Assembly: GCF_000341895.1 (NCBI RefSeq)
Contig: NC_020409.1
Span: 1,590,001-1,622,000, forward strand
Reading direction: 5' to 3'
DNA from: Pseudodesulfovibrio piezophilus C1TLV30
Lineage (GTDB): Bacteria; Desulfobacterota; Desulfovibrionia; Desulfovibrionales; Desulfovibrionaceae
Length of the DNA: 32,000 bases
A model generated the notes under the pieces. That model was not told the origin of the DNA. It was given only the letters and a program-made list of their open reading frames with translations, and did not search any database. The position numbers were made by a program, and so were the translations under genes. Each line of letters begins with the position of its first letter. Positions within the stretch are counted from its first letter, which is position 1. Positions 1,874-24,925 of this stretch are shown here, one piece after another.

Positions 1874-1921
1874 TGTGTAGCGTGACAATATAGTTGTTAA
1901 CGATACAATAAAGTTGTTAAC
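1874..1921 (+). repeat. Tn7-like right-end terminus with two closely spaced TnsB-type binding repeats
   Basis: TGTGTAGCGTG is followed by ACAATATAGTTGTTAAC (1885-1901) and ACAATAAAGTTGTTAAC (1905-1921). The same motif occurs inverted three times at the left end. Confidence 0.7.
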
Positions 1922-1971
1922 AAAAGCCGTTTCTGGTAACTACAAAATGTAGAAAACTAGGAGCGGCTTTT

Positions 1972-2796
1972 ATGTCCAAACGATATTCCCCATCCGACGA
2001 AAGATTTTAACGTTGGCGCAAGGAAGGTCGCGGTGCCGGCAGGCATGGCAACTATAAGCCTTGGTTGACTGTGTGGGATGTGCCTTCCCAAGGGCGTTCA
2101 CATCGAATCTTCGGACACAAAGTACGCCGAACGCACCACCTTTTCTCCGACCTAGAGCTTGCTGTCTTCCTCCCTTTGGAATGGCAGCAAGACGTAACCG
2201 ACATTCGGGAACAATTTCCGCTTCAACGAGAACTCACGATTGAAATCGCCGACCAATACGGCATTACACACCCTTCGGCCTCTGGCGTCCTTCAGTACAT
2301 GACTTCAGACTTTCTCGTCGACACATCACGGTCAGACAAAATGCGCGTGGCGCTACAGGCTAAGTACTCCGATGAGCTTCAAAAGCCCCGAATGATAGAG
2401 AAGCTGGAATTAGAACGCAGGTATTGGGAGCAGAAAGGCGTCCACTGGCATCTGGTGACTGAAAAGGAAATTTCTTCTGTCGCACTTGAAAACATAAAGT
2501 GGCTTTACCCAGCTCAACGTGACGAAATCGAGGATGCTGATCTGAAGCATCGAGCGGATTTTTACAGTCACCACTTTGCCGAAAACAAAGAGTCTACATT
2601 AATCAATCTCGCTAAATCTCTTGAAGTAGCCTACGACCTTGCTCCCGGAGAATCTTTACGAGAAATCAGACAGCTACTATCTCAAAGAGTCTTTTCATTC
2701 GATATCAATATTGCTTTTCGTAAGCTTGCACCCAGGGATTTAGTCGCAGCTGAAGCCGTGACCTTAGAGGAGATGCTTCATGTTCAGAATCAATGA
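1972..2796 (+). pseudogene. tnsA: tnsA (Tn7 TnsA endonuclease family) with an in-frame TAA at codon 13
   Basis: ATG at 1972 is preceded by AGGAG (1959-1963). Translation reads MSKRYSPSDERF*RWRKEGRGAGRHGNYKPWLTVWDVPSQGRSHRIFGHK..SDLELAVFLPLEW..IREQFPL..KLELERRYWEQKG. It is collinear with Tn7 TnsA (..RRIKEGRGQGHGKDYIPWLTVQEVPSSGRSHRIYSHK..SDLELAVFLSLEW..IREQFPL..LELERRYW). The TAA at 2008-2010 lies between the ATG and the conserved block. The ORF track only rescues a TTG start at 2065. Confidence 0.85.
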
Positions 2797-3269
2797 AGTG
2801 CTTAAGTATGAAGGCCGGTTGTTCCGAGTCCTCTCGTTGCTTGGTGAACAGTTGGTCTGGATTGACCTTGAAAGCCCTAAGCCCTTCCCTGCGCTCATTT
2901 TGAGAAATGATCTGATTCAATCAATTGAAGATGAAACCCTATTCCGGGCTGAAGACCCTCACTCCGAGCTTGCATTTAAAAATCCCAAACCAGGAAGTTC
3001 GGCACAAATCAAACGAGATACCAATTACGCATTTGTCCAGGAGACGCTTGATAAACTTGAGTACTTCGATCGCAAAGAATTAACTGCTCGCATCAATGAA
3101 GTTGTTTCGAGTGGCAAGGTGTCCAAGCCTCAATTGTACAAATTACTGAGGCGTTATTGGCAAAGGGGGCAAACGCCCAATGCCCTTCTTCCAGACTACA
3201 AACACTCTGGCGGCAAAGAAAAGAAACGCGTAGCGAACGGGAAAAAACTCGGGAGACCGCGCGAGTTTA
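2780..3269 (+). pseudogene. tnsB: tnsB N-terminal fragment (Tn7 TnsB transposase family), truncated by IS insertion
   Basis: MFRINEVL... and ...YKLLRRYWQRGQTPNALLPDYKHSGG match the Tn7 TnsB N-terminus (MWQINEV..., YKLLRRYWQRGQTPNALIPDYKNSG). The ATG at 2780 overlaps the tnsA stop (2794-2796). Similarity ends at ~3269, where the IS inverted repeat begins. No DDE core follows. Confidence 0.85.
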
Positions 3270-3332
3270 TGAGAAGTGGGTTCACTTTATCGGACCACTG
3301 AGCGGCGAATTTAAGGTGGACAGTTTTACGTG

Positions 3333-4082
3333 TTACGCCGCCTTGTGGGTCCATCCCAGAGGGGGTACCCCCTCTGGGATGGGACCGCTTTGATATATCT
3401 CCATCGGCTTGCGTCCGTCAAAGGTCTTATGAGGACGCCGATTATTGTAGAAGTTAAACCACCAGGCCAAGGCACTCCGCAGCTCACTTCCTGTCTCCAG
3501 TTCCCGCAAGTAGACACATTCGTATTTCAAAGACTTCCAGAGTCGTTCGATCATGACGTTATCCATCCAGCGTCCTCGGCCATCCATTGAAATGCGGATG
3601 CCAGCATCCCGCAGAGTCTTTGTGAATTCATAGCTGGTGAACTGGCTCCCCTGGTCTGTGTTGAATATCTCAGGTTCTCCATAACGGTTGATCGCATCCT
3701 CCAAAGCTACGACACAAAAGTCGGCCTCCATCGTATTCGACAAACGCCACGACAATACTGCCCGGCTATGCCAATCCATGATTGCCACGAGATACAAGAA
3801 GCCTCGTTTCATCGGAATGTAAGTAATGTCGGTACACCAAACTTGATTTGGCTTTGTGATCTTCATGTTCCGCAACAAATACGGATATATTTTGTGCTGT
3901 GGATGAGGATCACTCGTCCTCGGTTTTTGGTAAATCGCCATCAAGCCCATCTTGCGCATAAGTCGTCTCACACGACCACGGCCAACCAGATGCCCTTCAT
4001 CCCGCAGAATGTTGCGCATCTGGCGTGAGCCGAAAAATGGTAGCTCCATGAACAACTCGTCGATGCGTTTCATCAACTCCAA
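3333..4082 (-). CDS. IS3-family transposase OrfB (DDE/rve integrase core); probably made as an OrfAB fusion
   Basis: DDE-core signatures are [21 protein letters not shown] and [15 protein letters not shown]. The same frame stays open upstream of the listed TTG start (..[23 protein letters not shown]) and across the orfA stop. It is in the -1 frame relative to orfA. Confidence 0.85.
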
Positions 4083-4210
4083 GTTATACGATGATTCGCC
4101 AATCGGCTGATAATAGTATGTTGAGCGTTGCAGTTTGAGGATTCTGCATTGTCGCCGGACGCTGAGTTGTGGATGCTCTTTGTCGACGACTTCACGCCTT
4201 CGCTCGCAGC

Positions 4211-4522
4211 TCAGATTTTGGCGAAGGCTTGTTGCAAAAAATCCTTCTCGATCAGAAGTTGGCCGATCTTAGCGTGCAGATCCTTGATATGTGCATCGTC
4301 CATTTGCTGGCTCTTCTCTGCCTTGCCAGAAAATGACGCGACAATACCTTCTTTGGCTTGTCGTTTCCACGTGGATATCTGGTTGGTGTGAACTCCATAC
4401 TTGCTGGCCAGCTCGGAAAGTGTGTGCTCGCCAGACAAAGCGTCGAGGGCTACACGGGCTTTGAATTCAGCAGTAAATCTTCTTCTCTTCTTGGACATCG
4501 AAAAGCCTCCTTCGGCTATCAT
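4211..4522 (-). CDS. IS3-family transposase OrfA (HTH)
   Basis: MSKKRRRFTAEFKARVALDALSGEHTLSELASKYGVHTNQISTWKRQ is a typical IS3/IS911-type OrfA N-terminus, followed by a leucine-zipper-like tail. Confidence 0.85.
   Translation of the reverse strand: MIAEGGFSMSKKRRRFTAEFKARVALDALSGEHTLSELASKYGVHTNQISTWKRQAKEGIVASFSGKAEKSQQMDDAHIKDLHAKIGQLLIEKDFLQQAFAKI
4235..4241 (-). other. Candidate programmed -1 frameshift heptamer T TTT TTG in the orfA/orfB overlap
   Basis: On the minus strand orfA reads GAT TTT TTG. This fits the X XXY YYZ pattern. The -1 frame is open from here into orfB. Confidence 0.4.
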
Positions 4523-4570
4523 ATGTCCACCTTATACTGTGGTCCAGTTTCTTAGACCCACTTCTCTCAT

Positions 4571-4798
4571 ATAGTTAAAAGACATATGAAGGAGTTTTTG
4601 GGAAAAGGTATTTCTAAAAATGAAATTCCTGATTTTCTTCAACAAGCCTTAGCAAAGAATAATGTGATTGGTTTTCAGGGCAAAGGAAAAGGTAGACCTA
4701 TTTACGAGTTTGTCTATAAAGGTAAAAAATAGCGTATTGCGATTACTATTGGAGGTAATGGCTATATAGTTGGTGCTAACTTTAGAAGTAGTAGGTGA
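4571..4798 (+). pseudogene. 5'-deleted remnant of a toxin C-terminal domain (paralogue of the last ~75 codons of the 10301-11590 toxin) with an in-frame TAG
   Basis: Translation is IVKRHMKEFLGKGISKNEIPDFLQQALAKNNVIGFQGKGKGRPIYEFVYKGKK*RIAITIGGNGYIVGANFRSSR. The paralogue reads HILEEHKQDFWRKGISKDEIPDFLQQALEKNNVVGYQGQGSGRPIYELVYKGKRQRVAITVGNNGFVVGANPKGLK. The TAG at 4730-4732 aligns with CAG in the paralogue. The fragment starts directly at the IS boundary. Confidence 0.85.
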
Positions 4799-4803
4799 TT
4801 AAT

Positions 4804-5112
4804 ATGTTGGAAAGAATGAGACTTGCGTTGGAATATTATTGCTCACCCATTTGGATAATTGATGATGATGGGAGTTCCGACACTATAGCTGTTGAAGATA
4901 TGGATATAAGTGATTCTCTTAAGAAAGATATCATTACTTGGGATAATCTTTATCAGGCCACTTTTGATGCTGAATATCCTCCAGATTCTGGATTTTCTTC
5001 AAAGGAGGCCGATGATTTATTGAAAAAATCATTTAGACTAGAAGGAAAAGCATTGTTTTTGAGGCTTAAAGAAGAGTTAAAAGGTAAGTATATATTTGAA
5101 TATATGGCATGA
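4804..5112 (+). CDS. Putative immunity protein, paralogue of 11596-11913
   Basis: MLERMRLALEYYCSPIWIIDDDG...YPPDSGFSSKEADDLL..LEGKALFLRLKEEL is collinear with MIKRIRLALEYGCSPIWIIDEDG...YPPDSGFSSNEANVLL..LEGKELFLRLKEEL. It sits directly 3' of the toxin remnant. The ATG at 4804 is preferred over the GTG at 4795 because the TTAATATG context is shared with the paralogue. Confidence 0.75.
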   Translation: MLERMRLALEYYCSPIWIIDDDGSSDTIAVEDMDISDSLKKDIITWDNLYQATFDAEYPPDSGFSSKEADDLLKKSFRLEGKALFLRLKEELKGKYIFEYMA

Positions 5113-5267
5113 TTTCTTGTGTGATAAGAATTATCGCCTATCTTGTCTGGTGTGTAACGATGGTAAGACCATTAGTGAAGAGTGGCTTCTGTCTCGTTAT
5201 TTCTCAAGGGAGAGGGGGTATTATCAACTAATCTGCCAATCCCAAGTAAGTACTAGGCAAAGGACAT

Positions 5268-5639
5268 ATGATAAACGATACAACATTACTCCAATGGTTA
5301 AACTTACTGAATTTGTCTCCTGATTTTGTAATCAGACATGGTAATGAAAATGAAAGTTCAACAACAACAGCAATCCCTCTTGTTCCAAAGGATGACGGTG
5401 ATTACTGGATCGCTGGAGTAACCATACTTGCTAACGGTGATCGGCTAGACTCTGTTTTTATTGTTGATACGAATTCTGGAGGAGAGCTTTCCAGCGTGTA
5501 CTGGAAGATTGATAACAAATGGTGGGACTTTTTTGAACGCCCTGCCGTTTTCGCAGCATTGTCATTAAACGAGAAAGACGTATTTCCTTTTGATTGGCAG
5601 TTTTCAGTGCCTTTGGAAGAAGATATCTTTCATGACTAG
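5268..5639 (+). CDS. Hypothetical protein (candidate orphan immunity gene)
   Basis: 123-aa ORF in AT-rich DNA between two cassettes. AAGGA lies just upstream of the ATG. I recognise no family. Confidence 0.45.
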   Translation: MINDTTLLQWLNLLNLSPDFVIRHGNENESSTTTAIPLVPKDDGDYWIAGVTILANGDRLDSVFIVDTNSGGELSSVYWKIDNKWWDFFERPAVFAALSLNEKDVFPFDWQFSVPLEEDIFHD

Positions 5640-5730
5640 TACTTAGATTTAGAAAGCAACCGATTCATCAGACCGCTTGCTTTCTACCAATCTATTTAAT
5701 TTTTTTCATCGACCCTCTTACCACCTTAAA

Positions 5731-5765
5731 GACGGCCCGCCTCAGCGGGCCGTCTTTCGTTTTTT
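5731..5765 (+). terminator. Rho-independent terminator-like hairpin, first base of the repeated cassette unit (copy 1)
   Basis: GACGGCCCGC-CTCA-GCGGGCCGTC (10-bp GC stem) followed by TTTCGTTTTTT. Confidence 0.7.
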
Positions 5766-5839
5766 GACATAACCCCAACTCCTCGACCTCCACCACTGTA
5801 AACACCGTCATCAACGGCGGCGATCTCGGCGAAAATCTG

Positions 5840-7018
5840 GTGGGGAGCCTCCACTCTTCCGCAGTGGGCGTGCTTGGCAAGCACGCAGCCATGAAGATTG
5901 GTGAGGCGTATGACGGCGGCAATGGAGATATTGATTACGTCACTCATAAAATCGCTCATGCCGCTCTTGGCGGGACCATGGCTGCGGCAACAGGGGGAGA
6001 TATCGCCTCTGGTGCCATTGGCGGTGTCGTTGGGGAAGTTTTTGCTGAAGAATTTAGAAGTGAGTTGGAAGATGCCATACGAATGGGTGAAGTCGAACCA
6101 GATCAGGTTCAACGATGGGGCGATGCAGGTGTTGACATGTCGGCTCTTGTTGCAGGTTTGGCTGCGGCAGCTGCCGGTGGTGATGTAAACACTGCATCTG
6201 AAACTGGAGCAAATGCCGCCGAAAATAATGCCCTTTGTGGTGGATTCTGCATAGCTGCACTTGCTGCAGCTATATGGGTGTTAGCATCAGGAGAAGGAGA
6301 TCCTATAGAAGGCTTGGAAGAAATTGGCGATGGAACTGATCCGCTTAGTCAAGCCATTGCAACTGGCACTAAGGAAGCTGTGAATTTTTCAAGGAAGGAG
6401 CTCCCAAAAGAAACGGACGCAGTTATAGATGTTTTGGGGAAAGCTGGTGAAAATATTGATGCAATAGTCACTTATGTAGATGAAGCAACCGGTAAAGAAG
6501 TAAGTAGTCGTTGGAATAAGCTTCCTGAGCGAACTCGAAAGAGGCTCAAGGGTGGAGCAAAGGTTGTTTCAGTCTTGATTCCTGGTAAGGTTGTTACAAA
6601 ACTTATAAATAATAAAGCAATTAAGCCAATCGTTAAATTAGGGCAGAAACTGAAGGGGAAAAAATACACTCCTCTTGACAAAGGGCCTCTTAATACTGAA
6701 ATAGCAAAAACATTTAGAAGTGCAACTTATACTGAGAAAATTACAACCAAACCTACCACCTTGTATCGAGTGATAAGTGATAATGGAAATCCTGCTGGAG
6801 GGTATTGGACTCGTATTAAACCTAAAGGACCATTACAATCTGTAGTTGATTCAGCTCTTGATCAAAACTGGGGAAATACTGCCACGAGAGTTGTGAAAGC
6901 GGTTATTCCAAGAGGGACGACTATATACGAAGGCTTTGCTGCTTCACAACGCGGATTAGTTGGTGGTGGTAATCAAGTGTTCATAAAGTCTGTGAACCCC
7001 AAATGGATCACAAAGTAA
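5840..7018 (+). CDS. Orphan CdiA/FhaB-family toxin C-terminal cassette 1 (DUF637-like plus PT-VENN-like pre-toxin plus variable CT); no convincing start codon or RBS
   Basis: The frame is open from 5768, right after a stop. ..TVNTVINGGDLGENLVGSLHSSAVGVLGKHAAMKIGEAY..THKIAHAALGG..GGDIASGAIGGVVGEV..LVAGLAAAAAGGDVNTASETGANAAENNAL shows the pre-toxin pattern of two-partner-secretion exoproteins. The VENN-type motif AENN lies at 6218-6229 and is followed by a unique ~260-aa C-terminus. Confidence 0.75.
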   Translation: MGSLHSSAVGVLGKHAAMKIGEAYDGGNGDIDYVTHKIAHAALGGTMAAATGGDIASGAIGGVVGEVFAEEFRSELEDAIRMGEVEPDQVQRWGDAGVDMSALVAGLAAAAAGGDVNTASETGANAAENNALCGGFCIAALAAAIWVLASGEGDPIEGLEEIGDGTDPLSQAIATGTKEAVNFSRKELPKETDAVIDVLGKAGENIDAIVTYVDEATGKEVSSRWNKLPERTRKRLKGGAKVVSVLIPGKVVTKLINNKAIKPIVKLGQKLKGKKYTPLDKGPLNTEIAKTFRSATYTEKITTKPTTLYRVISDNGNPAGGYWTRIKPKGPLQSVVDSALDQNWGNTATRVVKAVIPRGTTIYEGFAASQRGLVGGGNQVFIKSVNPKWITK

Positions 7019-7029
7019 CTGAGGCTAAC

Positions 7030-7272
7030 ATGTGGGAAGAGATACATGGGTTTATTAGCCCAAGCGAATATAAACGTTTTTTGCAGTTCATTCATGATCA
7101 AGTTGTCCTGGGGCGTGTCGTAGAAATAGTTGTAGATCCAGATTACTGTGAAGGGATGATTTGTGGAGGAAGATGGTTTCAAGACCCTTCTTCGGGAGAG
7201 GTTTGGAGGCTTATAGAGCCTGACTTTCCGTTTAAAGGGTTATGGGAAAGAGTAAATTGTAGTGACTTGTAG
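7030..7272 (+). CDS. Putative immunity protein for cassette 1
   Basis: Small ORF directly 3' of the toxin. GAGG (7021-7024) lies 5 nt upstream of the ATG at 7030. The track start at 7003 overlaps the toxin end. It is followed by hairpin copy 2. Confidence 0.6.
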   Translation: MWEEIHGFISPSEYKRFLQFIHDQVVLGRVVEIVVDPDYCEGMICGGRWFQDPSSGEVWRLIEPDFPFKGLWERVNCSDL

Positions 7273-7288
7273 GTATAATATGATTGGC

Positions 7289-7321
7289 ACGGCCCGCTTC
7301 TGCGGGCCGTTTTTCGTTCTT
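7289..7321 (+). terminator. Terminator-like hairpin, cassette unit copy 2
   Basis: ACGGCCCGC-TTCT-GCGGGCCGT followed by TTTTCGTTCTT. Confidence 0.7.
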
Positions 7322-7395
7322 TGACATAACATACCTCCACCACCTCCGCCACTGTAAACACCGTCATCAACGGCGGCGATTTCGGCGACAATCTG

Positions 7396-8406
7396 GTGGG
7401 GAGCCTGCATAGTTCCGCAGTGGGCGTGCTCGGCAAGCACGCGGCTATGAAGATTGGTGAGGCGTATGACGGCGGCAATGGAGATATTGATTACGTCACT
7501 CATAAAATAGCGCATTTAGCTTTGGGAGGAGCTATTGCGGCAGCTAGTGGCGATGACATTGCTGCAGGTGCCATTGGTGGGATGATTGGGGAAATCACCG
7601 CCGAGGCATTCCTTACTGATCGTATCCAATCAGGCATGACCGAGGAAGATATTGATAAGCTTGAAGCTGTCGGCGTAGACTTTTCGAAGTTGGCGGCTGG
7701 ATTGGCGGCAGCTGTGGCAGGAGCCGACGTTGATACTGCCGCAGGAACAGCAGAGAACGCCGCTCAAAATAACGCTGTCGATACTTTCTTTGACGCACTC
7801 TTTGTTCTGGCGGATGCAGGGAAGATCGCTTGGGGTTGGTATACGGACGATGACGGACTTCTTCAAGAAGGTATCATTGACCTCACTGCTGATAGTGCAG
7901 CCCTTCTTATACCATGCGTTCCCGCAGGATCAACCAGAGTCGCTCGTATATTCCAGAAAGCAGCTAGTAAAACAGATGATGTTGTTGATGCAGCAAAAGC
8001 TATTGATAATGCAGGAGATGCTGCGAAAGTTGTCGATAATGTCGCTGATGCTGGTAAAATTGGCGAAAATGTATCAGGCGGTGTCAAACATAGTGACAAA
8101 TATGCTCATGTTGGTAAAAGGCTTGATGAGAATGCAGCAAGACAATTTGATAACAAAACCATTAAAACTGATGATGCTCTTGATTTAGCACAAGATTTTC
8201 TTGGCTCAGGGTATAAAGACATGGGTGGTGGACGATTTTTATCTAAAGATGGTACTCGACAAGTACGAATGGGAGATGCTGACATTACAGGTCAACATGC
8301 AGGAGGAAACCATATGAATTTTGAAATATTAACTCCTAACCCTAAAAAACTTGGTAAAATGATGATTAAGAAAAAAGACAATCTTCATATCTTTTTGAAG
8401 GATTAA
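7396..8406 (+). CDS. Orphan CdiA/FhaB-family toxin C-terminal cassette 2
   Basis: The frame is open from 7330, after a TAA. It has the same pre-toxin region, with AQNN at 7762-7773. The post-motif domain VDTFFDALFVLADAGKI..IPCVPAGSTRVARIFQKAASK is shared with cassette 3. The unique C-terminus is ..GRFLSKDGTRQVRMGDADITGQHAGGNHMNFEIL..NLHIFLKD. Confidence 0.75.
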   Translation: MGSLHSSAVGVLGKHAAMKIGEAYDGGNGDIDYVTHKIAHLALGGAIAAASGDDIAAGAIGGMIGEITAEAFLTDRIQSGMTEEDIDKLEAVGVDFSKLAAGLAAAVAGADVDTAAGTAENAAQNNAVDTFFDALFVLADAGKIAWGWYTDDDGLLQEGIIDLTADSAALLIPCVPAGSTRVARIFQKAASKTDDVVDAAKAIDNAGDAAKVVDNVADAGKIGENVSGGVKHSDKYAHVGKRLDENAARQFDNKTIKTDDALDLAQDFLGSGYKDMGGGRFLSKDGTRQVRMGDADITGQHAGGNHMNFEILTPNPKKLGKMMIKKKDNLHIFLKD

Positions 8407-8410
8407 ATTC

Positions 8411-8650
8411 ATGAAGTATACCCTTGACATATCAGATGATAATTTTTGGGAAGTTGGGGCCGAAATAGAAGTTCAAATTGGAGATGACTTTGAGGCAGTC
8501 ATCAAAGCTAATGCAAAAGGATTTATTTCCCTTGCGAGACTTTGCTTGCAGTTCTCTTTGGATGATGTTCGGGCGCATGACCATTTACATCTCGACGTAA
8601 ATACTGGCCTTGAAGAAGGTTCTACAGAATTAATTATTGAAAGAACTTAA
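8411..8650 (+). CDS. Putative immunity protein for cassette 2
   Basis: 79-aa ORF 4 nt after the toxin stop. AAGGA lies 8 nt upstream. ..ANAKGFISLARLCLQFS..HDHLHLD..LEEGSTELIIE is reminiscent of Imm32-type immunity proteins; this is from memory and unverified. Confidence 0.6.
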   Translation: MKYTLDISDDNFWEVGAEIEVQIGDDFEAVIKANAKGFISLARLCLQFSLDDVRAHDHLHLDVNTGLEEGSTELIIERT

Positions 8651-8677
8651 TACACAAATACCAGATGAGTAATTTGC

Positions 8678-8710
8678 ACGGCCCGCCTCAGCGGGCCGTT
8701 TTTCGTTCTT
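8678..8710 (+). terminator. Terminator-like hairpin, cassette unit copy 3
   Basis: ACGGCCCGC-CTCA-GCGGGCCGT followed by TTTTTCGTTCTT. Confidence 0.7.
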
Positions 8711-8784
8711 TGACATAACGTACCTCCACCACCTCGGCCACGGTAAACACCGTCATCAACGGCGGCGATTTTGGCGACAATCTG

Positions 8785-9690
8785 GTGGGGAGCCTCCACT
8801 CTTCCGCAGTGGGCGTGCTCGGCAAGCACGCGGCCATGAAGATTGGTGAGGCGTATGACGGCGGCAATGGGGATATTGATTACGTCACTCATAAAATAGC
8901 GCATTTAGCTTTGGGAGGAGCTATTGCGGCAGCTAGTGGCGATGACATTGCTGCAGGTGCCATTGGTGGGATGATTGGGGAAATCACCGCCGAGGCATTC
9001 CTTACTGATCGTATCCAATCAGGCATGACCGAGGAAGATATTGATAAGCTTGAAGCTGTCGGCGTAGACTTTTCGAAGTTGGCGGCTGGATTGGCGGCAG
9101 CTGTGGCAGGAGCCGACGTTGATACTGCCGCAGGAACAGCAGAGAACGCCGCTCAAAATAACGCTGTCGATACTTTCTTTGACGCACTTTTTGTTCTGGC
9201 GGATGCAGGGAAGATCACTTGGGGCTATATCATCGATGACGATGGGATGGTTAATGAAGGGTTGATTGATCTTAGTGCAGACAGTGCCGCTATGCTCATA
9301 CCATTTGTGCCAGCAGGAACAACTAGAATTGCGAGAATATTCCAAAAAGCTGCAAGTAAATCTGATGATGTTATTGATATCGCTAAGCGATCAGTTACTT
9401 ATTCAGAGAAGCAGTTAAAGCGTAAATTTAAACACGCTGGAGATTTTGGTATTGAAGGAAAAAATTACAATCCTTCAAAAGGTGAAAGATTTAGAAAAGC
9501 TATTGACGATCATGTCCGTAATACAGAAACTGTTGAAATAAAAGGAACCTATAGAGGTCAAGATGTGGTTCATTACGTTAACCCCAAAACAGGTAATAAT
9601 GTTATTAAAAAGCCGGATGGGGAGTTCATTAGTGGGTGGAAATTAAAACCTGACCAGCTAAAAAATGTTTTGACCAGAGGTAAACTTTAA
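8785..9690 (+). CDS. Orphan CdiA/FhaB-family toxin cassette 3 with a colicin D-like tRNase C-terminal domain
   Basis: The frame is open from 8719. AQNN lies at 9151-9162. The C-terminus is SEKQLKRKFKHAGDFGIEGKNYNPSKGERFRKAIDDHVRNTETVEIKGTYRGQDVVHYVNPKTGNNVIKKPDGEFISGWKLKPDQL. It resembles the colicin D catalytic domain (..KHAGDFGI..F..AI..H....T..KGTYR......NP.T.NVVI.K.NGEFLSGWK..). Confidence 0.8.
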   Translation: MGSLHSSAVGVLGKHAAMKIGEAYDGGNGDIDYVTHKIAHLALGGAIAAASGDDIAAGAIGGMIGEITAEAFLTDRIQSGMTEEDIDKLEAVGVDFSKLAAGLAAAVAGADVDTAAGTAENAAQNNAVDTFFDALFVLADAGKITWGYIIDDDGMVNEGLIDLSADSAAMLIPFVPAGTTRIARIFQKAASKSDDVIDIAKRSVTYSEKQLKRKFKHAGDFGIEGKNYNPSKGERFRKAIDDHVRNTETVEIKGTYRGQDVVHYVNPKTGNNVIKKPDGEFISGWKLKPDQLKNVLTRGKL

Positions 9691-9963
9691 ATGGATACTA
9701 CGAATATATATATTAATTTAATAGATGATTTCTTACATTATAGAATTACGGCTTCAGAGTTCGAAATGTCATTTATCAGACAACGGCGTCAAGATCTTAA
9801 TGATAAAAACAATTATAATAATGCATTAGAAGAATTGTTCTTTGATATTGATGCATTCTGCTCTGATCCAGAGTTGATAGAAGAAGAAGATTTAACGGAA
9901 GAGGAGCTGCGGAGAAGCTGCATGCGAACTCTTTCTGATTTAAAGTCAGACGGAAAAGGATAG
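9691..9963 (+). CDS. Putative immunity protein for cassette 3 (colicin D immunity-like)
   Basis: The ATG immediately follows the toxin TAA. GAGGT lies 9 nt upstream. The N-terminus ..LIDDFLHYRITASEFEMSFIRQRRQ resembles ImmD (..[22 protein letters not shown]..) as I recall it. The C-terminal half is acidic. Confidence 0.65.
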   Translation: MDTTNIYINLIDDFLHYRITASEFEMSFIRQRRQDLNDKNNYNNALEELFFDIDAFCSDPELIEEEDLTEEELRRSCMRTLSDLKSDGKG

Positions 9964-10194
9964 TCGCAAGGTCGCGAAAAGATATAAAAATAATACAGAA
10001 TGCTTAGAAGCCATGAAAAGGATTCTTAATGAGAAAAAAATGGGAAGAAAAAATATATTGATTTGATCAAAGTGTATGAATTGATGGGAGATAGAGCGAA
10101 TGCTCTTGATAAAAAAGATATGAATATGCCTTAAAGGGTAGTGGTTATGAAGAGAAGAATTGTGATTAATTTGAAATGATTTGTGCGTTCGTAG

Positions 10195-10227
10195 CGGCCC
10201 GCTTCGGCGGGCCGTTTTTCGTTCTTT
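10195..10227 (+). terminator. Terminator-like hairpin, cassette unit copy 4
   Basis: CGGCCCGC-TTCG-GCGGGCCG followed by TTTTTCGTTCTTT. Confidence 0.7.
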
Positions 10228-10300
10228 GACATAACATACCTCCACCACCTCCGCCACTGTAAACACCGTCATCAACGGCGGCGATTTCGGCGACAATCTG

Positions 10301-11590
10301 GTGGGGAGCCTGCATAGTTCCGCAGTGGGCGTGCTCGGCAAGCACGCGGCTATGAAGATTGGTGAGGCGTACCATAAAGGCGATCTGAACTATGTGACGC
10401 ATAAAATCGCCCATGCCGCCCTCGGCGGAGCCATCGCAGCAGGAACTGGCGGCGATGTCGCATCCGGTGTCATTGGCGGGGCTGTGGGTGAGATCACAGG
10501 TGAATTTCTTTCCAAAGAAATCGAAGATGCTCTGAGAGCAGGGGATATAGACCCCACCAAAGTTCATCAGTGGATGGATGCCGGTGTCGACGTTTCAAAG
10601 CTTGCAGCTGGTCTTGTTGCGGCCGCTGCTGGCGGCGATGTCAACACTGCGGCCGATGTGGCAGATAATGCTGCTAAGAACAATGCCTTCTGGATCGCCA
10701 TACCAATTCTTTTGGAAGTGGCAGACAAGATCCTCATGGCTGCCGATGCCGTGGAATTTGGCGAAGCCGTCATTACAGGGGATGTCGAAAAACAAAACGA
10801 GATCATGCTGGGTTTCCTGATCGGCATGGGTATCGAAACCACTGTCGGCAGCATACTCCCCGGCAGCTATGTCGCGCTCAAGGGAGCCATCAAGGCTGGC
10901 AAGCTCGACGTGATCATCGACCTGCTTCCAGACAAAGCAGTCAAGTGGATTATCGAACATTCAGACGATGCCATCGGCGAGCTTCGAAGTACGCTTCATT
11001 CAAAATTCCCGGACCTGAAAGCTGATCTGGACAACTTTAATTTCGATGGCCTTAAAAATAGCGACGAGCTGAATAAAATTCTCGCCAAGAAAAAGGGCGA
11101 TACGGATATTCCGAATTCCGGTGGCAGCTCCTCTGGTGGGAGTTCTTCTGGAGGTTCTCACGGGAATTCTTCTGGTGGAAAGCCGGATGGCTCGACAAGT
11201 GGGGCTGTCGATATTGCAACACAGGTTCATGCTGAACATCTTGAAGAAATGAAAAGCTTAGGAGTTAAGTATACTCATGAGGATGTACTTTTCACCCACA
11301 AAATGCCTGATGATAAGATTGCATTCCTTGAGAAAGGAAGCTCAAATGGGGGGCTCGCTCATATACTTGAAGAACACAAGCAGGACTTTTGGAGAAAAGG
11401 TATTTCTAAAGACGAAATTCCAGATTTCCTTCAACAAGCCCTAGAGAAAAACAACGTGGTTGGCTATCAGGGACAAGGAAGCGGTAGACCTATTTACGAA
11501 CTTGTTTATAAAGGTAAAAGACAGCGTGTTGCAATAACTGTTGGCAATAACGGTTTTGTCGTTGGCGCTAACCCTAAAGGGCTTAAATAA
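10301..11590 (+). CDS. Orphan CdiA/FhaB-family toxin C-terminal cassette 4
   Basis: Same 5' region as the other cassettes, with AKNN at 10673-10684. A hydrophobic post-motif segment is followed by a Gly/Ser linker (NSGGSSSGGSSSGGSHGNSSGGKPDGSTSG) and a ~130-aa C-terminal domain (..GGLAHILEEHKQDF..GRPIYELVYKGKRQRVAITVGNNGFVVGANP). I cannot assign that domain to a family. Confidence 0.75.
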   Translation: MGSLHSSAVGVLGKHAAMKIGEAYHKGDLNYVTHKIAHAALGGAIAAGTGGDVASGVIGGAVGEITGEFLSKEIEDALRAGDIDPTKVHQWMDAGVDVSKLAAGLVAAAAGGDVNTAADVADNAAKNNAFWIAIPILLEVADKILMAADAVEFGEAVITGDVEKQNEIMLGFLIGMGIETTVGSILPGSYVALKGAIKAGKLDVIIDLLPDKAVKWIIEHSDDAIGELRSTLHSKFPDLKADLDNFNFDGLKNSDELNKILAKKKGDTDIPNSGGSSSGGSSSGGSHGNSSGGKPDGSTSGAVDIATQVHAEHLEEMKSLGVKYTHEDVLFTHKMPDDKIAFLEKGSSNGGLAHILEEHKQDFWRKGISKDEIPDFLQQALEKNNVVGYQGQGSGRPIYELVYKGKRQRVAITVGNNGFVVGANPKGLK

Positions 11591-11595
11591 TTAAT

Positions 11596-11913
11596 ATGAT
11601 AAAAAGAATAAGACTTGCATTGGAATATGGTTGCTCGCCTATTTGGATAATTGATGAAGATGGAGATTTGGACACTGTGGCTATTGAGAATATGAATATA
11701 AGTGATTCTTTAAAAAAAGATATTACCATTTGGAACGATGTTTACCATGTTACTTTCAATGAGAACTACCCACCGGATTCTGGTTTTTCCTCAAACGAGG
11801 CTAATGTGCTATTACAAGAGGCATTCAAGCTAGAAGGGAAAGAATTATTTTTGAGACTTAAAGAAGAATTAAACGGAAGATATATCGTTGAATCAAAATT
11901 CGGTATTAAATAG
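11596..11913 (+). CDS. Putative immunity protein for cassette 4
   Basis: 105-aa ORF 5 nt after the toxin stop. It is a paralogue of 4804-5112. Confidence 0.7.
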   Translation: MIKRIRLALEYGCSPIWIIDEDGDLDTVAIENMNISDSLKKDITIWNDVYHVTFNENYPPDSGFSSNEANVLLQEAFKLEGKELFLRLKEELNGRYIVESKFGIK

Positions 11914-11951
11914 AAATCATGAAGTCTAATCAGGTCACCCCATGATTACAG

Positions 11952-12069
11952 AAAACGGCCTGCTTTAGTGGGCCTTTTTTTGTTCTTTGATATAGCTCCT
12001 CACTATCTACTCCACACCTCAGCCGGGTGAATATCGCCATCAAAGGCGATGATTTGGGAGAAAATCTGG
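11952..12069 (+). pseudogene. Stub of a fifth cassette (degenerate hairpin plus diverged 5' coding stretch), cut by an IS fragment
   Basis: A weak GGCC...GGCC hairpin with a T-run is followed by TTGTTCTTTGATATAG and ..VNIAIKGDDLGENL, compared with ..VNTVINGGDLGENLVGSL in the other cassettes. Similarity stops at ~12069. Confidence 0.65.
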
Positions 12070-12465
12070 CGAGATGATCCGGGATCTGATGCTCGAATGC
12101 GTGGAGAAACGATTCGGCGCGAGCCGTGCGCCGCACAAGGTGCAATGGCTGTCGGACAACGGCTCCTGCTACACGGCAAAGGAGACCGTTGAGTTCGCCG
12201 CCTGGCTGGGGCTGGAAAGTTGTTTTACGCCGGTACGCAGCCCGGAGAGCAACGGCATGGCCGAGTCATTTGTGAAAACCTTCAAACGCGATTATGCCTA
12301 CGTGCATGACCGGCCCGATGCGAGGACGCTCTTCGCTCAATTGGCCGACTGGTTCGAGGATTACAACGAAAGGCATCCCCACAAGGGACTGCGGATGCAA
12401 TCTCCCCGCGAATTCATCCGCTCATTGGCAACCGCCGAGTGTCCGATTTAGCGAGGGCAACTCCA
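12070..12465 (+). mobile_element. 3' fragment (~400 bp) of an IS3-family, IS2-group element
   Basis: It encodes only the C-terminal part of OrfB. The end, read as reverse complement, is TGGAGTTGCCCTCGCTAAATCGGACA, which resembles the IS2 right inverted repeat TGGATTTGCCCCTATATTTCCAGACA. The 5' two-thirds of the IS are missing. Confidence 0.7.
12074..12451 (+). pseudogene. Truncated IS2-like transposase OrfB (C-terminal fragment)
   Basis: ..[70 protein letters not shown] is collinear with IS2 InsD (..[68 protein letters not shown]). Confidence 0.8.
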
Positions 12466-13581
12466 ATACCATCTCTCTCGAAGTGTACACTTATAACGAC
12501 CAGGAATCCCCTTCAACTCTCCAAACGCTAAATATTCCAACAGCCCTTCAGTAAAACTATCAGCATCTACACCATTTAAGTCCAATAAATAACGAGGCTT
12601 CTCGTTCGCTACTAGCTATTCGTGATTTACGTCTGTATATCTAACTGAACCATTCACAAACATGCCTTTTTGAATGACAGGCTTGACATATCCACCTAGA
12701 TCGTACTGCTCAACAGTACCCTGTGATACAATAAAAAAATTATTCGCCGCAGTTACTATCCCAGCTACAGAAGTGCAGTAAGATGAAATTGGTCTGCAGG
12801 CCTCTGTCAATCGTTTAACCAATCCAAGTTCTTCAGAACTAAGGATAAACGATGTCCATTTGGCAGTTTCAGCACCTTCATGTTTAGTTAATTGAACTTC
12901 AGCTGAACTAAGCTCCTCAATAGAGTCTACTTCTGTAAAATAAAATCCCTCTTCTGTTGCCTCCTTATGAGCAATCAGAATAACTGTGTCTTGTTCTAAA
13001 GTCTCAAAGGCAAGTTTCCTAAATGAGATAATCTCTACGCGATTAAAACTCTGAAGCAGATACGATCTGATTTCTTGAGCGTACTTTACTTGCAACAACT
13101 CTGTTGGAATCACGAAGGCCATCACGCCATGAGGGGTCAACAACTGGGCAGCTTTCACAACAAAAGCTGTCCAGATATTTGATATCTCTTTATTGACCAA
13201 CCCTGCTTCTACATGGATTTTCTTACAAGCAGCAGCCTGATCCGACGCCAAATTCGTCTTACTTATGTAAGGGGGATTCCCGAGGATGATATCGTATGAG
13301 TGGGGAGCATCCCATGCGAGAAAATCTTCATTAAAAAGCTTAGAAGATGGCATGCTCTGATGCGCAATGGAAAGGGCATCGCAATCAATCTCAACCCCAT
13401 CGACTGCCAATTAATTACGGCTCTTCAAACCCGCTAGTGCTCGAAAAAAGACACCGTCGCCGCAACTAGGCTCAAGCACTCGAACTTGATCACCTGGGAA
13501 TGTCAGGCCCACCACCCTTTGCGATATCCACCTGGCGAGACTTGCTGGAGTATAGTATTTTCCGCTTTTCTTATTTGTCAT
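12466..13581 (-). pseudogene. Gamma-class N6-adenine DNA methyltransferase (Eco57I/TaqI-like) with two in-frame stops and a 3' truncation
   Basis: From the ATG at 13581 it reads MTNKKSGKYYTPASLARWI..VLEPSCGDGVFF (motifs X and I), then SRN, TAA (13413-13411) and LAVDGVEID..ILGNPPYIS (motif IV). After ..VNHE a TAG (12618-12616) is followed by 50 more open in-frame codons: LVANEKPRYLLDL..GELKGIPGRYKCTLRERWY. These run into the IS2-like end at 12465. No restriction endonuclease gene is adjacent. Confidence 0.75.
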
Positions 13582-13755
13582 CACATATCAACCTATTACA
13601 GCAAAAAAAGTGGAGTGTAACACCAAACTGTTCACAAAGGTTCTGTTTTGAAGTAGCAAGTCGCCCCATTCAAGTCTAGGACTCAGAAATACCTGAACTA
13701 ATACACAACTTATTGCATCGAGACGATATTACTAAGGCAACCTTAAGACGAACCT

Positions 13756-13903
13756 GTTAACGACTTTATTATTTCGATTTTATCATTTGTTTGCACCCTC
13801 CTGAGGGAGTATTAACAACTAAGATGCTAATTCATCTTCTTTTTAATGGGCGGATTCAGAGTTTTTGGGGCAATGCTGTAAACAACTTTATTGTTCGCCC
13901 ACA
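13756..13903 (-). repeat. Tn7-like left end with three dispersed TnsB-type repeats
   Basis: GTTAACGACTTTATTATT (13756-13773), ATTAACAACTAAGATGC (13811-13827) and GTAAACAACTTTATTGTTCGCCCACA (13878-13903) are inverted copies of the right-end motif. The sites are spaced out, as in the Tn7 left end. Confidence 0.7.
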
Positions 13904-16532: not shown

Positions 16533-16932
16533 CTTCCACATCTCCCGAAGGGCTAAGAATATCAGTAAAAAATTAAGGATGTCTCTATAGAGATTCAGAG
16601 GTAAATCATTTGTGGCGACTTGGCAACGCCACCTTTGGGCGAATTTTAAGCCCACCATTTTTAACCATTCACAATACAAAGAAAAATTTTACAGAATACA
16701 ATACTTTATATTTTTTTACAAGTATCAACTCCATTATCATAATTTGATACTTACAGAGACTCTCTCACCTCTCCTCAATATTCCCTGTGTTTCTCTATAC
16801 AAAACAAAGAGCGATTCAAGCCTCAGCTATGTGTTTTATTCTTCTCGAATCATGCAAGTTTCACAGCTGGATTCTTCCCGTTTTTACTCTGTATTGAGTG
16901 TTATGCAACAATGTTGTAGGAGATGTCGGTAT

Positions 16933-18332: not shown

Positions 18333-19157
18333 CTATTCCTTGACTGATCCTGCAAGCAATCCGCGTATAAAATATCTTCCAAGGAAGATGTAAATACACA
18401 GGACCGGAACAGCGGCCATAATCGACCCTGCCATGGGGAGATTCCAACTCACAGCCTGTCCCCCGGCCAGCTGAGCCAGCCCGACCGTGATCGGATTATC
18501 AGCATGACGGGTCAAACAGATACCCCAAAGGAATTCATTCCAGATTTGTGTAAACTGCCACAGCGATGTGACGACAAAACCGGGAATCGAAAGAGGAAAG
18601 ACGATCCGTGTATAGATGGAAAAGAATCCGGCCCCGTCAAGACGCCCGGATTCGATGAGCGCAGTCGGAATCTGCGAATAGAAATTACGAAAGATCAATG
18701 ATGTGATCGGCAGTCCATACACGATATGTGCCAGAATCAACCCCGGCAACCCGCCATACAGATTCATAGCGCGCAGGGTCTGAAACAACGGGATCAGGAT
18801 GACCTGATATGGAATAAACATGCCGAAAAGGAACAGGGTAAAAACGATTTCACTTCCCTTGAATTTCCACTTGGAAAAGACATATCCATTCAGAGAACCG
18901 AGTAGAGTGGACCCGGCCGTGGCACAGATAGTGAGAATGACTGAATTGACAAAACTCGGTTTGAGCAACGAAATCGCCTGGGAAAAACTTCCCCAATTGA
19001 GCACAGACGGAAGCTCCCAGGCCGTTGGAAGATTGATCTCTGCCGGCATTTTGAGTGCTGTCACCAAGGCCATATAGGCTGGCATGAGAAAAAGAAGGGC
19101 GAGAACAGCGAGAGTTCCGTACAGTAAAAAGGAACCGGGAGTCATGGCACGTTTCAT
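18333..19157 (-). CDS. Carbohydrate ABC transporter permease (MalG/UgpE-like)
   Basis: Six-TM-type hydrophobic profile with the EAA loop ..[27 protein letters not shown]. Confidence 0.85.
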
Positions 19158-19159
19158 GG

Positions 19160-20278: not shown

Positions 20279-20381
20279 TCTCTAACCTAACGCTGCCGCT
20301 GCACTAGTCGCGACAACTCTCCATTCGTTTATGCTGTCCGCACCGGAAACGCATGATTCCCGATGCGGACAACGTGTTGTT

Positions 20382-21638: not shown

Positions 21639-21716
21639 ACTACCTCCTAAGTATTGTGAAACACACCTACAGCCAATCAAAACAATATTAAAATAACCAC
21701 TTACCATGGCACAAAA

Positions 21717-22814: not shown

Positions 22815-22844
22815 TTTCGTCCCTTGATCTCGTTACTCCCGCTC

Positions 22845-24922: not shown

Positions 24923-24925
24923 GGC

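Follow-up and report, generated by a model that had tools for sequence, protein, structure and literature searches.

A probable stranded array of orphan toxin–immunity cassettes, bounded by repeated hairpins, in Pseudodesulfovibrio piezophilus

The feature at 5731–5900 is, we judge with good confidence, a junction, one of five, within a row of orphan toxin–immunity cassettes that are arranged in tandem and belong to a CdiA/TpsA-type two-partner-secretion system for contact-dependent inhibition (CDI); the junction hairpin would be a terminator, the cassettes recombine with each other and the array would be stranded. The arrangement is of an already known type, described as 'orphan cdiA-CT/cdiI' or 'tpsC cassette'. 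All positions refer to the window, the whole stretch of 32,000 nucleotides that we analyzed (contig NC_020409.1 of P. piezophilus C1TLV30, 1,590,001 to 1,622,000).

Cassettes, junctions and the transposon that carries them

Each cassette runs from the second half of DUF637 through PT-VENN into a variable toxin and an immunity gene. In all four cassettes, Pfam matches to DUF637 cover profile positions 90–168 of 168, begin at residue 2–3 and are followed by PT-VENN, as in a 5'-truncated cdiA/tpsA fragment that keeps the sequence upstream of the VENN-type pre-toxin motif. The cassette frame corresponds to about residue 1476 of an 1834-aa TpsA, and the same region lies 300–460 aa from the C-terminus in proteins of about 2000–2900 aa. 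Downstream, the C-terminal toxin domain varies and a small immunity gene comes directly after it.

All cassettes lie on the + strand. Cassette 1 (5768–7018) carries DUF637 from residue 3 and PT-VENN (AENNAL at about 6225–6242) ahead of an unclassified toxin domain; immunity-like gene 1 (7030–7272, alternative start at 7003) has TGAGG 5 nt before its ATG and no family match. Cassette 2 (7330–8406), also with an unclassified toxin domain, corresponds by database match to CCH48761.1 of P. piezophilus C1TLV30 and is followed by immunity gene 2 (8411–8650; Pfam Imm32, 2e-12). Cassette 3 (8719–9690) has DUF637, PT-VENN and a colicin-D-type tRNase domain (Pfam Colicin_D, 6e-25), matches P0002, and precedes immunity gene 3 (9691–9963; Pfam Colicin_immun, 2e-14). 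Cassette 4 (10235–11590; Pfam DUF637 and PT-VENN) resembles cassette 1 in that an unclassified C-terminal domain is followed by a small ORF, here immunity-like gene 4 (11596–11913). A fifth-cassette stub (11991–12071), ending ..VNIAIKGDDLGENL, retains about 75 nt of cassette frame before an IS fragment cuts it at about 12071. Each predicted toxin would be neutralized specifically by the adjacent putative immunity protein. G+C content is 52–58% in the arms vs 33–42% in the toxin and immunity parts, a contrast which points to a foreign origin of the variable parts. Exact database look-ups returned no record for immunity gene 3, P0002, P0153, the glmS-like gene described below, or cassette 2 when its GTG is taken as the start.

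An older cassette tail and its immunity gene lie upstream, at 4570–5112 (+), and had been overlooked. This cassette 0 consists of a toxin 3' tail (4570–4798), related to the toxin of cassette 4 and carrying an in-frame TAG at 4730, and an immunity-like gene (4804–5112) that is a paralogue of immunity-like gene 4. The region is 78% identical to 11355–11654. In the closely related metagenome contig L002, from JGI sample 3300009848, the in-frame stop is also present and the immunity-like gene is a 102-aa gene. Between cassette 0 and junction 1 lies a 123-aa ORF (5268–5639, +) with no family match; it is conserved in L002 and is possibly a second immunity gene.

Five units each open with a hairpin, GGCCCGC-N4-GCGGGCC, a T tract and TTTGACATAAC, the fifth in diverged form. 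The sequence-only reading of this DNA had reported the same GC hairpin and motif in four units. For those four the report holds: each of them carries, on the + strand, GGCCCGC-N4-GCGGGCCGT with TTTTCGTTCTTTGACATAAC after it, at 5734, 7291, 8680 and 10196, against 0 matches expected in shuffled sequence; the count, however, left out the diverged copy at 11955–11996. When the four units are aligned, similarity starts sharply at the foot of the hairpin and the DNA 5' of it is unrelated. The loops differ (CTCA, TTCT, CTCA and TTCG in units 1–4) on identical stems, just as had been described.

Junction element 1 (5728–5773, +) comprises a 13-bp hairpin (5728–5757, loop CTCA) and the tail CGTTTTTTGACATAAC, with an in-frame stop TGA at 5765–5767; its RNA fold reaches -25.7 kcal/mol (z = -6.9). 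Element 2 (7289–7330, +) has loop TTCT, then TTTTTCGTTCTTTGACATAAC, and a stop TAA at 7327–7329. Elements 3 (8678–8719, +; loop CTCA) and 4 (10193–10235, +; loop TTCG) have TAA at 8716–8718 and 10232–10234. Element 5 (11955–11996, +) reads GGCCTGC TTTA GTGGGCC, then TTTTTTTGTTCTTTGATATAGC, with TGA at 11988–11990. Two G.U pairs preserve its stem in the + strand RNA only, and it folds at -17.4 kcal/mol on the + strand vs -8.9 on the - strand (core hairpin -10.9 vs -4.7). The toxin frame had been said to open just after an embedded stop, and in units 1–4 it does, at 5768, 7330, 8719 and 10235, but the stop is not the same one: a 1-nt indel after TAAC accompanies the use of TGA in cassette 1, vs TAA in cassettes 2–4. 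We envisage a junction of three parts, namely a G+C-rich hairpin with a U tract that would act in the sense RNA, a conserved tail TTTYGTTCTTTGAYAT, and a cdiA/tpsA fragment that would enter in mid-DUF637 and continue through PT-VENN to a cassette-specific toxin domain and immunity gene. The frame would open after a stop because a gene fragment has been fused to non-coding DNA.

The array in its entirety forms the cargo of a decayed Tn7-like transposon (1874–13903, no strand assigned), which begins 4 nt past the stop of a glmS-like SIS gene (142–1869) whose glmS-like matches fall below the cut-off. One end reads TGTGTAGCG.. at 1874 with ACAATAWAGTTGTTAAC repeats at 1885–1921 (+); the same repeats are inverted at 13756–13772 and 13878–13894, and at 13903 the element closes with ..CGCCCACA. 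These inverted ends with repeated TnsB-type sites, the insertion just downstream of a glmS-like gene, and tnsA (2065–2796, +; Pfam Tn7_TnsA-like_N 3e-21, Tn7_Tnp_TnsA_C 3e-20) are features of Tn7-like elements. A putative tnsB N-terminal fragment (2780–3269, +) begins ahead of the tnsA stop, an overlap also found in Tn7-like operons, and continues into an IS inverted repeat; as 2780–3269 has no family match, the name tnsB is inferred. The putative tnsB is cut at 3269, and the window holds no tnsC or tnsD. The interrupting element belongs to the IS3 family (3270–4569, -; Pfam rve, HTH_21, HTH_Tnp_1; inverted repeats 3271–3298 and 4539–4566) and shows no target-site duplication. Where the window has this IS, L002 runs 900 nt further 5' into cassette 0, and we read the element as marking a deletion of the remaining tns genes and of everything 5' of cassette 0. 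Another transposase gene of the IS3 family is represented by a 3' fragment at 12074–12451 (+; Pfam rve_3, rve).

Recombination among units and the apparently missing full-length gene

The sequence-only reading gave 7311–7468 and 10215–10372 as identical and then diverging, which is essentially so: cassettes 2 and 4 are identical over 7302–7466 (165 nt, ending ..GAGGCGTA), with a sharp break at 7467. Cassettes 2 and 3 are identical over 7483–7799. Judged by these tracts, units have exchanged sequence within the array, cassette 2 being a mosaic drawn from cassettes 4 and 3. Rearrangement is also seen in L002, which is 99% identical to the window but lacks two cassette bodies. There, the junction of cassette 1 is followed by the body of cassette 2, and that of cassette 3 by the body of cassette 4, the crossovers lying inside the conserved unit in tracts of 28–33 identical nt. 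As L002 is a short metagenome contig, these apparent deletions could be assembly jumps across repeats, although the contig carries private SNPs and differs from the window by about 1%. L003 and strain zrk46 (94% over 1037 nt) likewise show a junction element with a near-identical arm, followed by divergence. On this comparative sequence, cassette gain and loss via the repeated junction appears to have natural examples.

The identity of cassettes 2 and 4 from 7302 on and the position of the L002 crossovers bear out the earlier view that the hairpin was copied along with the coding stretch. Its corollary, that the units are not independent truncations, stands within the array of the window but not beyond it, since in other Pseudodesulfovibrio loci at least seven truncation points are found joined to this element. 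Repeated flanks are provided by each junction element together with the conserved pre-toxin stretch, and homologous recombination between such flanks adds, deletes and reshuffles cassettes, as the sequences show. In strains with a full-length gene, the same recombination could join a cassette to it, as the rest of the family suggests.

The earlier reading went further, seeing in the conserved stretch a homology arm for swapping a cassette into an expressed full-length gene; in this strain the cassettes would then be a silent reservoir for a full-length cdiA/tpsA of the same genome. The architecture fits orphan cdiA-CT and tpsC cassettes, for which the conserved stretch has been proposed to act as a homology arm (orphan cdiA-CT modules; PMC3150448, PMC4927057) or shown to work as one (meningococcal tpsC cassettes; PMC3848433), and the arms here are perfectly identical over 165–317 nt between cassettes. 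Moreover, relatives L004, L009 and L010 have a full-length cluster immediately upstream of their arrays and in the same orientation; complete loci of relatives include ShlB and TPS domains. In zrk46, the orphans share only about 75% identity with the full-length gene of that strain. The arm is of the published type, but we found no full-length partner for it in this strain. The 32-kb window contains no cdiA or cdiB, so that the array does not lie downstream of a full-length cdiB/cdiA (tpsB/tpsA) cluster there. P. piezophilus is absent from the best 120 TpsA homologues, among which other Desulfovibrionaceae are present, and no long protein holds anything close to the 157-aa arm: among proteins above 700 aa the top score is 114 bits, vs 212 for the cassette itself. 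By window and protein searches, then, the full-length gene with which the cassettes were supposed to recombine appears to be missing from this strain, which is what the earlier reading had itself named as a refutation of its model; a pseudogene or a divergent TpsA would escape the protein databases on which this absence rests. The IS3-family element that cuts cassette 0 inside a decayed transposon also speaks against a working reservoir, and we consider one unlikely here. The full-length gene has apparently been lost, probably by an IS3-associated deletion, which would leave the array stranded and at most an immunity repertoire.

Readings of the junction element

From its structure and placement, the hairpin with its U tract is most likely the intrinsic terminator, or a 3'-end stabilizer, of the preceding toxin–immunity module. 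All five hairpins were called terminator-like, with folds of -17 to -26 kcal/mol; G+C-rich stems of 7–13 bp are followed by GTTTTTCGTT or TTTTTTTGTT and lie 16–230 nt past the stops of immunity genes. Although it had been described as the 5' part of each unit, the hairpin makes a better 3' end for the module before it, for in relatives it also follows the immunity gene of the main gene (L010 9903, L004 11357) and the last immunity gene of the array (L010 19296). Pairing is conserved in the sense RNA across 18 junction copies in 5 loci, with stem pairs counted from per-sequence folds. Pair 7 swaps from C-G to G-C; five single-sided changes that preserve pairing are all C-to-T on the + strand, giving G.U in the sense RNA and a weaker antisense fold; and a plain mismatch occurs in one copy (L003 b3). 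A scan of 4400–12600 against Rfam (E <= 1) gave matches at chance level only, such as isrB at 26 bits vs a gathering score of 35.

The hairpin and a TTTGAYAT tail are newly found after immunity genes in other Pseudodesulfovibrio loci as well. Scanning genome contigs brought up nothing beyond a decayed remnant in the MAG of an uncultured Desulfovibrio (L001), scanning metagenomes brought up L004 and also L005, which is arranged like L001, and viral contigs gave no match to the junction element. In the other Pseudodesulfovibrio loci, the element is fused to at least seven truncation points spread over about 600 codons, coding homology beginning 2–9 codons past the motif. A plain terminator gives no reason for an identical CTTTGAYAT tail across species whose adjacent coding DNA is about 72–76% identical, and this tail is invariant in the 14 copies that precede orphans, in four lineages. 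The cassette frame is in phase with the motif TGA in 6 of 9 junction types. In the 202 kb examined the element is confined to arrays, and TTTGACAT is not enriched outside them, unlike a genome-wide Chi-like or uptake-sequence-like motif.

The number of truncation points, the conservation of the tail beyond that of neighboring coding DNA, the array-only occurrence and the six in-phase junction types are the grounds for supposing that the hairpin and TTTYGYTCTTTGAYAT form a dedicated, genus-wide cassette boundary, at which some activity captures or joins 5'-truncated cdiA fragments, integron-like but without a known integrase and perhaps linked to Y1/RAYT enzymes. We hold this to be quite unlikely, and give equally low credence to its more specific form, in which the element is a site for site-specific recombination or transposition (like an integron attC or an HUH/Y1 hairpin end) and has been joined to cdiA fragments enzymatically. 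Y1-transposase (RAYT-like) genes and REP-like repeats do occur within two related arrays (zrk46 and P. sediminis; L010 and L011), but the REP hairpin there, GAATTAGGGAGGTGTCCCCCTAATTC, is unlike that of the junction in sequence. In the window the array contains no recombinase, no integrase, no Y1 gene and no REP-like or cognate repeat; by direct reading the element has neither of the integron core sites, RYYYAAC and GTTRRRY, and the other cassette end has no conserved partner site. Furthermore, the stem changes as an RNA helix would, with G.U on the sense strand only, the junction offset past TTTGAYAT ranges from 0 to about 20 nt, and one junction shows possible CTGACC microhomology, a usual mark of illegitimate recombination. 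A terminator at the end of each module remains our preferred reading. A minus-strand G-quadruplex in the C-rich stretch after the motif was also considered and rejected, as only one copy (L003 7942–7957) has four G3 runs.

Because the toxin fragments have neither a start codon nor a ribosome-binding site, they are presumably silent. As far as sequence goes, they show an upstream stop, no Shine-Dalgarno-like sequence and no promoter-like site; the earlier remark that the first GTG or ATG has no Shine-Dalgarno sequence before it agrees with our direct reading, which found nothing like GGAGG there. NCBI annotation starts cassettes 2 and 3 only at an internal Met (P0154 and P0002). It is very unlikely, in our estimate, that each cassette is a separately expressed small toxin gene, with TTGACA as its -35 box and the first GTG or ATG as its start. 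TTGACA is a perfect -35 hexamer, and gene callers do predict ORFs from GTG (CCH48761.1), but 16–18 nt downstream there is no -10-like hexamer in any copy (CTCCGC, CCTCCA, CCGCCG and CCGGTG stand there), a promoter scan was empty at the junction sites, and we reject a sigma-70 promoter at TTGACA. All the way to the stop codon the frame is homologous to internal DUF637 sequence, and a fragment that lacks a TPS or signal domain would not be secretable. A sigma-32-like CCCCAT after the motif was likewise discarded, since it occurs in one junction type only and is coding sequence there. The immunity genes have Shine-Dalgarno-like sequences of their own, but a strong terminator ahead of every cassette leaves the route by which orphan immunity genes would be expressed unexplained, which counts against our favored explanation.

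That the motif encodes a minus-strand small protein, MSKNEKRPAEAGR.., read from the CAT of TTGACAT with GGAGG upstream, is scarcely credible: copies 1–4 do have an ATG with a GGAGG- or GAGGAG-like sequence 6–8 nt upstream, and three loop variants are all synonymous (Ala-Glu), but homologous copies refute it, with ATA for ATG in copy 5 of the window and in L011 12341 and a stop after 2–9 codons in L011 17815, L003 2074 and 4384, and L010 9933, and the G.U changes favor the sense strand.

Relation to known systems

Modules of the orphan cdiA-CT/cdiI type are known downstream of cdiBAI in E. coli EC93 and EC869, Dickeya, Yersinia and others (Poole et al., 2011, PMC3150448; Ruhe et al., 2016, PMC4927057). 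The array shares their 5'-truncated cdiA fragments, in which sequence upstream of the VENN-type motif is retained, their lack of translation initiation signals, and their unrelated C-terminal toxins each with a small immunity gene; these modules, too, stand in tandem arrays among IS elements, with common arms thought to permit recombination. It differs in that this strain has no upstream cdiBAI cluster, in that the array is cargo of a Tn7-like transposon, and in its host, a sulfate-reducing member of the Desulfovibrionaceae, a family for which our literature search found no CDI literature. A close parallel is provided by the tpsC cassettes and IORFs of the TPS islands of Neisseria meningitidis, which are silent, N-terminally truncated TpsA homologues with differing 3' ends and interleaved immunity ORFs, and among which, together with tpsA, strain comparisons show recombination (Arenas et al., 2013, PMC3848433). 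Unlike the array described here, the meningococcal cassettes adjoin an expressed tpsA, and no conserved hairpin-plus-tail junction is described for them (PMC3848433).

Two other systems are similar in part. The orphan rhs-CT/rhsI of Salmonella Typhimurium, as the review by Ruhe et al. relates it, is a silent 3' toxin–immunity module that has an arm in common with an expressed gene and is deployed by recombination (Koskiniemi et al., 2014, via PMC4927057), but by the same account it involves Rhs/YD repeats, is linked to T6SS and is usually a single orphan. Integron arrays likewise hold promoterless cassettes in rows, with a conserved, hairpin-forming boundary of species-specific sequence, and toxin–antitoxin content is common in them. 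Here, however, intI and attC core sites are absent, and the hairpin is a short perfect GC stem with a U tract that behaves as an RNA helix. Moreover, the cassettes have long coding arms in common, so that ordinary homologous recombination suffices, in contrast to integrons.

Orphan toxin–immunity arrays are thought to supply CDI systems with new weapons and new immunity. The present array extends them to deep-sea sulfate reducers of the Desulfovibrionaceae, offers an example of such an array as cargo of a Tn7-like transposon, and shows how one looks after its expressed gene has, as it seems, been lost. Across Pseudodesulfovibrio, a terminator and tail bound every module; should this element do more than terminate transcription, it would be relevant to the way in which orphan arrays are built up.

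Repeated units and the cassettes they carry

The sequence-only reading described four units that begin with the same hairpin and motif, and all four are present. On the plus strand, GGCCCGC-N4-GCGGGCCGT followed by TTTTCGTTCTTTGACATAAC matched at starts 5734, 7291, 8680 and 10196, with 0 matches expected from shuffled sequence. When the four regions were aligned, the DNA upstream was unrelated and similarity began at the foot of the hairpin. As that reading had proposed, identical stems in copies 1-4 carry varying loops (CTCA, TTCT, CTCA and TTCG), and a long plus-strand frame opens directly after a stop embedded in the motif: TGA at 5765-5767 in cassette 1, which has a 1-nt indel, and TAA at 7327-7329, 8716-8718 and 10232-10234 in cassettes 2-4. 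Two further pieces had been overlooked, namely a fifth, diverged junction copy at 11955-11996, followed by a cassette frame of ~75 nt that is cut by an insertion sequence (IS) fragment, and, at 4570-5112, the tail of an older cassette (cassette 0) together with its immunity gene. Among nine distinct junction types (window 5763-5773 and three related arrays), six have the TGA within TTTGAYAT in register with the cassette frame, where about three are expected by chance in this small sample. As readings of the element, we rejected a promoter at TTGACA of the tail, a minus-strand mini-ORF in the motif, known RNA families, integron attC sites, REP/Y1 elements within the window, a G-quadruplex and a genome-wide motif.

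In each frame, residue 2 or 3 opens a Pfam DUF637 match that enters the 168-position profile at position 90; PT-VENN follows downstream, with the motif versions AENNAL, AQNNAV and AKNNAF; the C-terminal parts beyond are unrelated among cassettes. The cassette 3 toxin has a colicin-D tRNase domain with a colicin-type immunity gene next to it, and an Imm32 gene lies after cassette 2 (CCH48761.1 of Pseudodesulfovibrio piezophilus C1TLV30). When searched as a profile, the conserved 157 aa matched 816 proteins, whose long members (2000-2900 aa) have this region 300-460 aa from the C-terminus, and the loci of several long matches contain ShlB-type TpsB genes and TpsA genes with a TPS domain and haemagglutinin repeats. 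Given the DUF637, PT-VENN and toxin-immunity matches, and the position in long TpsA proteins of the arm (the shared pre-toxin coding stretch), each cassette is, judged by sequence, a 5'-truncated CdiA/TpsA-type gene of which the 3' end is left, paired with an immunity gene of its own. G+C content is 52-58% in the arms and 33-42% in the toxin and immunity parts, as would be expected of horizontally acquired variable modules. The identity of cassettes 2 and 3 (7483-7990 and 8872-9380) extends past VENN over roughly the first 25 aa of the toxin region and is followed by 58-78% identity over ~150 nt, beyond which the two are unrelated; this suggests a common N-terminal, possibly entry-type, sub-domain with differing toxin domains.

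The junction hairpin and its tail in related arrays

The hairpin had been taken as the 5' part of the cassette that follows it, a view that we revise. In relatives, the junction element is also found after the immunity gene of a full-length gene (9903 in the Pseudodesulfovibrio sp. zrk46 locus, L010; 11357 in a marine metagenome contig, L004), and at L010 19296 it follows the array's last immunity gene with no cassette beyond. All five window hairpins were called terminator-like, with plus-strand RNA folds of -17 to -26 kcal/mol; the fifth folds at -17.4 kcal/mol on the plus strand versus -8.9 on the minus strand. In a comparison of 18 stems, drawn from the window plus four related loci, pair 7 is C-G in some copies and G-C in others, and the single-sided changes that keep pairing (5/5) are C-to-T on the plus strand, giving G.U in the sense RNA and a mismatch in the antisense RNA; one copy, b3 of the metagenome relative L003, has a plain mismatch. 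Because the element also comes after main-gene and last-of-array immunity genes, and sense-RNA pairing is kept, we interpret the hairpin with its U tract as the 3' end, and putative intrinsic terminator, of the toxin-immunity module upstream. A similar stem, GGCCTGC..GTGGGCC followed by Ts (29709-29734, minus strand), forms the terminator of a type III glutamine synthetase gene (29763-31946, minus); this stem style is therefore common in the C1TLV30 genome, and only the tail is array-specific.

The element recurs in zrk46, P. sediminis (L011) and L003, where a GGCCCG..CGGGCC hairpin comes after immunity genes and leads through T-rich sequence to an identical CTTTGAYAT. There it is joined to cdiA fragments that start at at least seven different places (about residues 960, 1189, 1213, 1273, 1455, 1472, which is the window's, and 1545 of zrk46 TpsA), with coding homology beginning 2-9 codons past the motif. 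The tail is invariant in 14 orphan-preceding copies, next to coding DNA of 72-76% identity. It has another form at L010 19296, where the array ends, and was absent outside arrays in 202 kb of sequence examined. Within a genome the T-rich part does not vary, and it differs from one genome to another, which indicates concerted evolution. One junction shows a possible CTGACC microhomology, and we think it improbable that a site-directed mechanism makes the junctions. We prefer the reading in which every toxin-immunity module has hairpin and tail as its conserved 3' flank: the two would move along with the modules in recombination and would limit the sites of new junctions, since both terminator and immunity gene would have to survive any deletion.

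Related loci show further arrangements. In L004 (11357-11899), a full-length gene with a colicin-D toxin and its immunity gene are followed by the same GGCCCGC..GCGGGCC hairpin, and 13 nt past it a long orphan starts in the haemagglutinin-repeat region; the TTTGACAT tail is absent. An uncultured Desulfovibrio MAG (L001, 9671-10250) and a metagenome contig (L005, 3357-3936) have a colicin-type immunity gene and then a frameshifted cassette stub that begins at about the same gene point as the window cassettes, with neither hairpin nor tail ahead of it. The arrays of zrk46 (L010 12397-13436, 17043-17310, 18427-18760) and P. sediminis (L011 13950-14693) contain Y1_Tnp genes, whose best NCBIfam match, below cut-off, is the REP-associated tyrosine transposase, along with numerous REP-like GAATTAKGGGRACAC repeats, half of one standing behind the stop codon of most immunity genes; at L010 13436 and 17310, truncated cassettes lie immediately against the right-hand REP hairpin. 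The window has no such Y1/REP arrangement.

Exchange among units and the apparently missing partner gene

The proposed exchange among units inside the array is borne out by the mosaic structure of cassette 2, which equals cassette 4 over 7302-7466, with an abrupt break at 7467, essentially as the sequence-only reading had noticed, and cassette 3 over 7483-7799. At a polymorphic block (CTCCACTCT or CTGCATAGT), cassettes 1 and 3 stand against cassettes 2 and 4. The metagenome contig L002 (JGI 3300009848) is 99% identical to the window and has two cassette bodies versus four; it is a short-read contig in which assembler jumps across repeats are possible, although its ~1% divergence and private SNPs count against them. 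In L002, the cassette 1 junction and first 65 nt lead into cassette 2, with the crossover within 28 identical bases (5797-5824 / 7354-7381), and the cassette 3 junction leads into cassette 4, with the crossover near 8835-8857, an arrangement that would be expected of homologous recombination between repeated units. The junction element with a near-identical arm and subsequent divergence is also seen in zrk46 (94% over 1037 nt) and L003.

Swapping a cassette into an expressed gene through the arm presupposes a full-length partner, and one is seemingly absent from this strain, judging by the window and protein searches; the family is not affected. There is no cdiA or cdiB in the 32-kb window, and closely related matches to the arm in a protein search were all cassette-sized. 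In an exhaustive profile search, the best protein longer than 700 aa scored 114 bits, versus 212 bits for cassette 2 itself. Among the 120 best homologues of the 1834-aa TpsA of zrk46, all of at least 511 bits, many are from Desulfovibrionaceae and none is from P. piezophilus, whose cassette proteins are present in the database searched.

This absence can be understood because the array sits in a Tn7-like transposon hit by a probable IS-associated deletion. The decayed transposon (1874-13903) encloses the whole array as cargo, together with tnsA (2065-2796) and an Eco57I-like methylase fragment (12616-13410, minus strand); its inverted ends have ACAATAWAGTTGTTAAC repeats at 1885-1921 and 13756-13894, and it is inserted 4 nt past the stop of a glmS-like SIS gene (142-1869), with flanks GTTTT and TTTTT. 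An apparently intact IS3-family element (3270-4569) without target duplication cuts a putative tnsB at 3269 and has the interior of cassette 0 on its far side, where L002 reaches 900 nt further into cassette 0. An IS-associated deletion has thus probably removed the other tns genes along with the DNA ahead of cassette 0, which may have held cdiB and cdiA. A fragment of a second IS3-family transposase gene (12074-12451) cuts the fifth cassette stub, and the two IS sequences together point to IS-mediated deletions at both array ends. The toxin tail of cassette 0 has an in-frame TAG at 4730-4732, versus CAG in cassette 4; L002 shares it (1073-1075), so this nonsense mutation is older than the IS insertion.

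The remainder of the window appears unrelated to the array: an HD-domain protein at 16612-18213 and, on the minus strand at 18333-27462, genes for a sugar ABC transporter (binding protein, two permeases, ATPase), aldose 1-epimerase, galactokinase and galactose-1-phosphate uridylyltransferase.

Comparison with described orphan modules

The window cassettes match the type of the orphan cdiA-CT/cdiI modules (Poole et al., PMC3150448) and of the tpsC cassettes of meningococci (PMC3848433). By predicted function and anatomy, the array is an orphan cdiA-CT/cdiI (tpsC-type) cassette array of a known kind. One feature of such loci, the full-length cluster upstream, is missing in C1TLV30, and the array is therefore best called a stranded remnant of an orphan cdiA-CT/cdiI locus. 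It differs from described orphan arrays in the strong terminator and conserved tail after every module, in its carriage by a Tn7-like transposon and in its new host lineage, as do related arrays in their Y1/RAYT-type genes and REP-like repeats; we found no CDI literature for Desulfovibrio-type bacteria. Of the features described here, the conserved junction element most merits following up.
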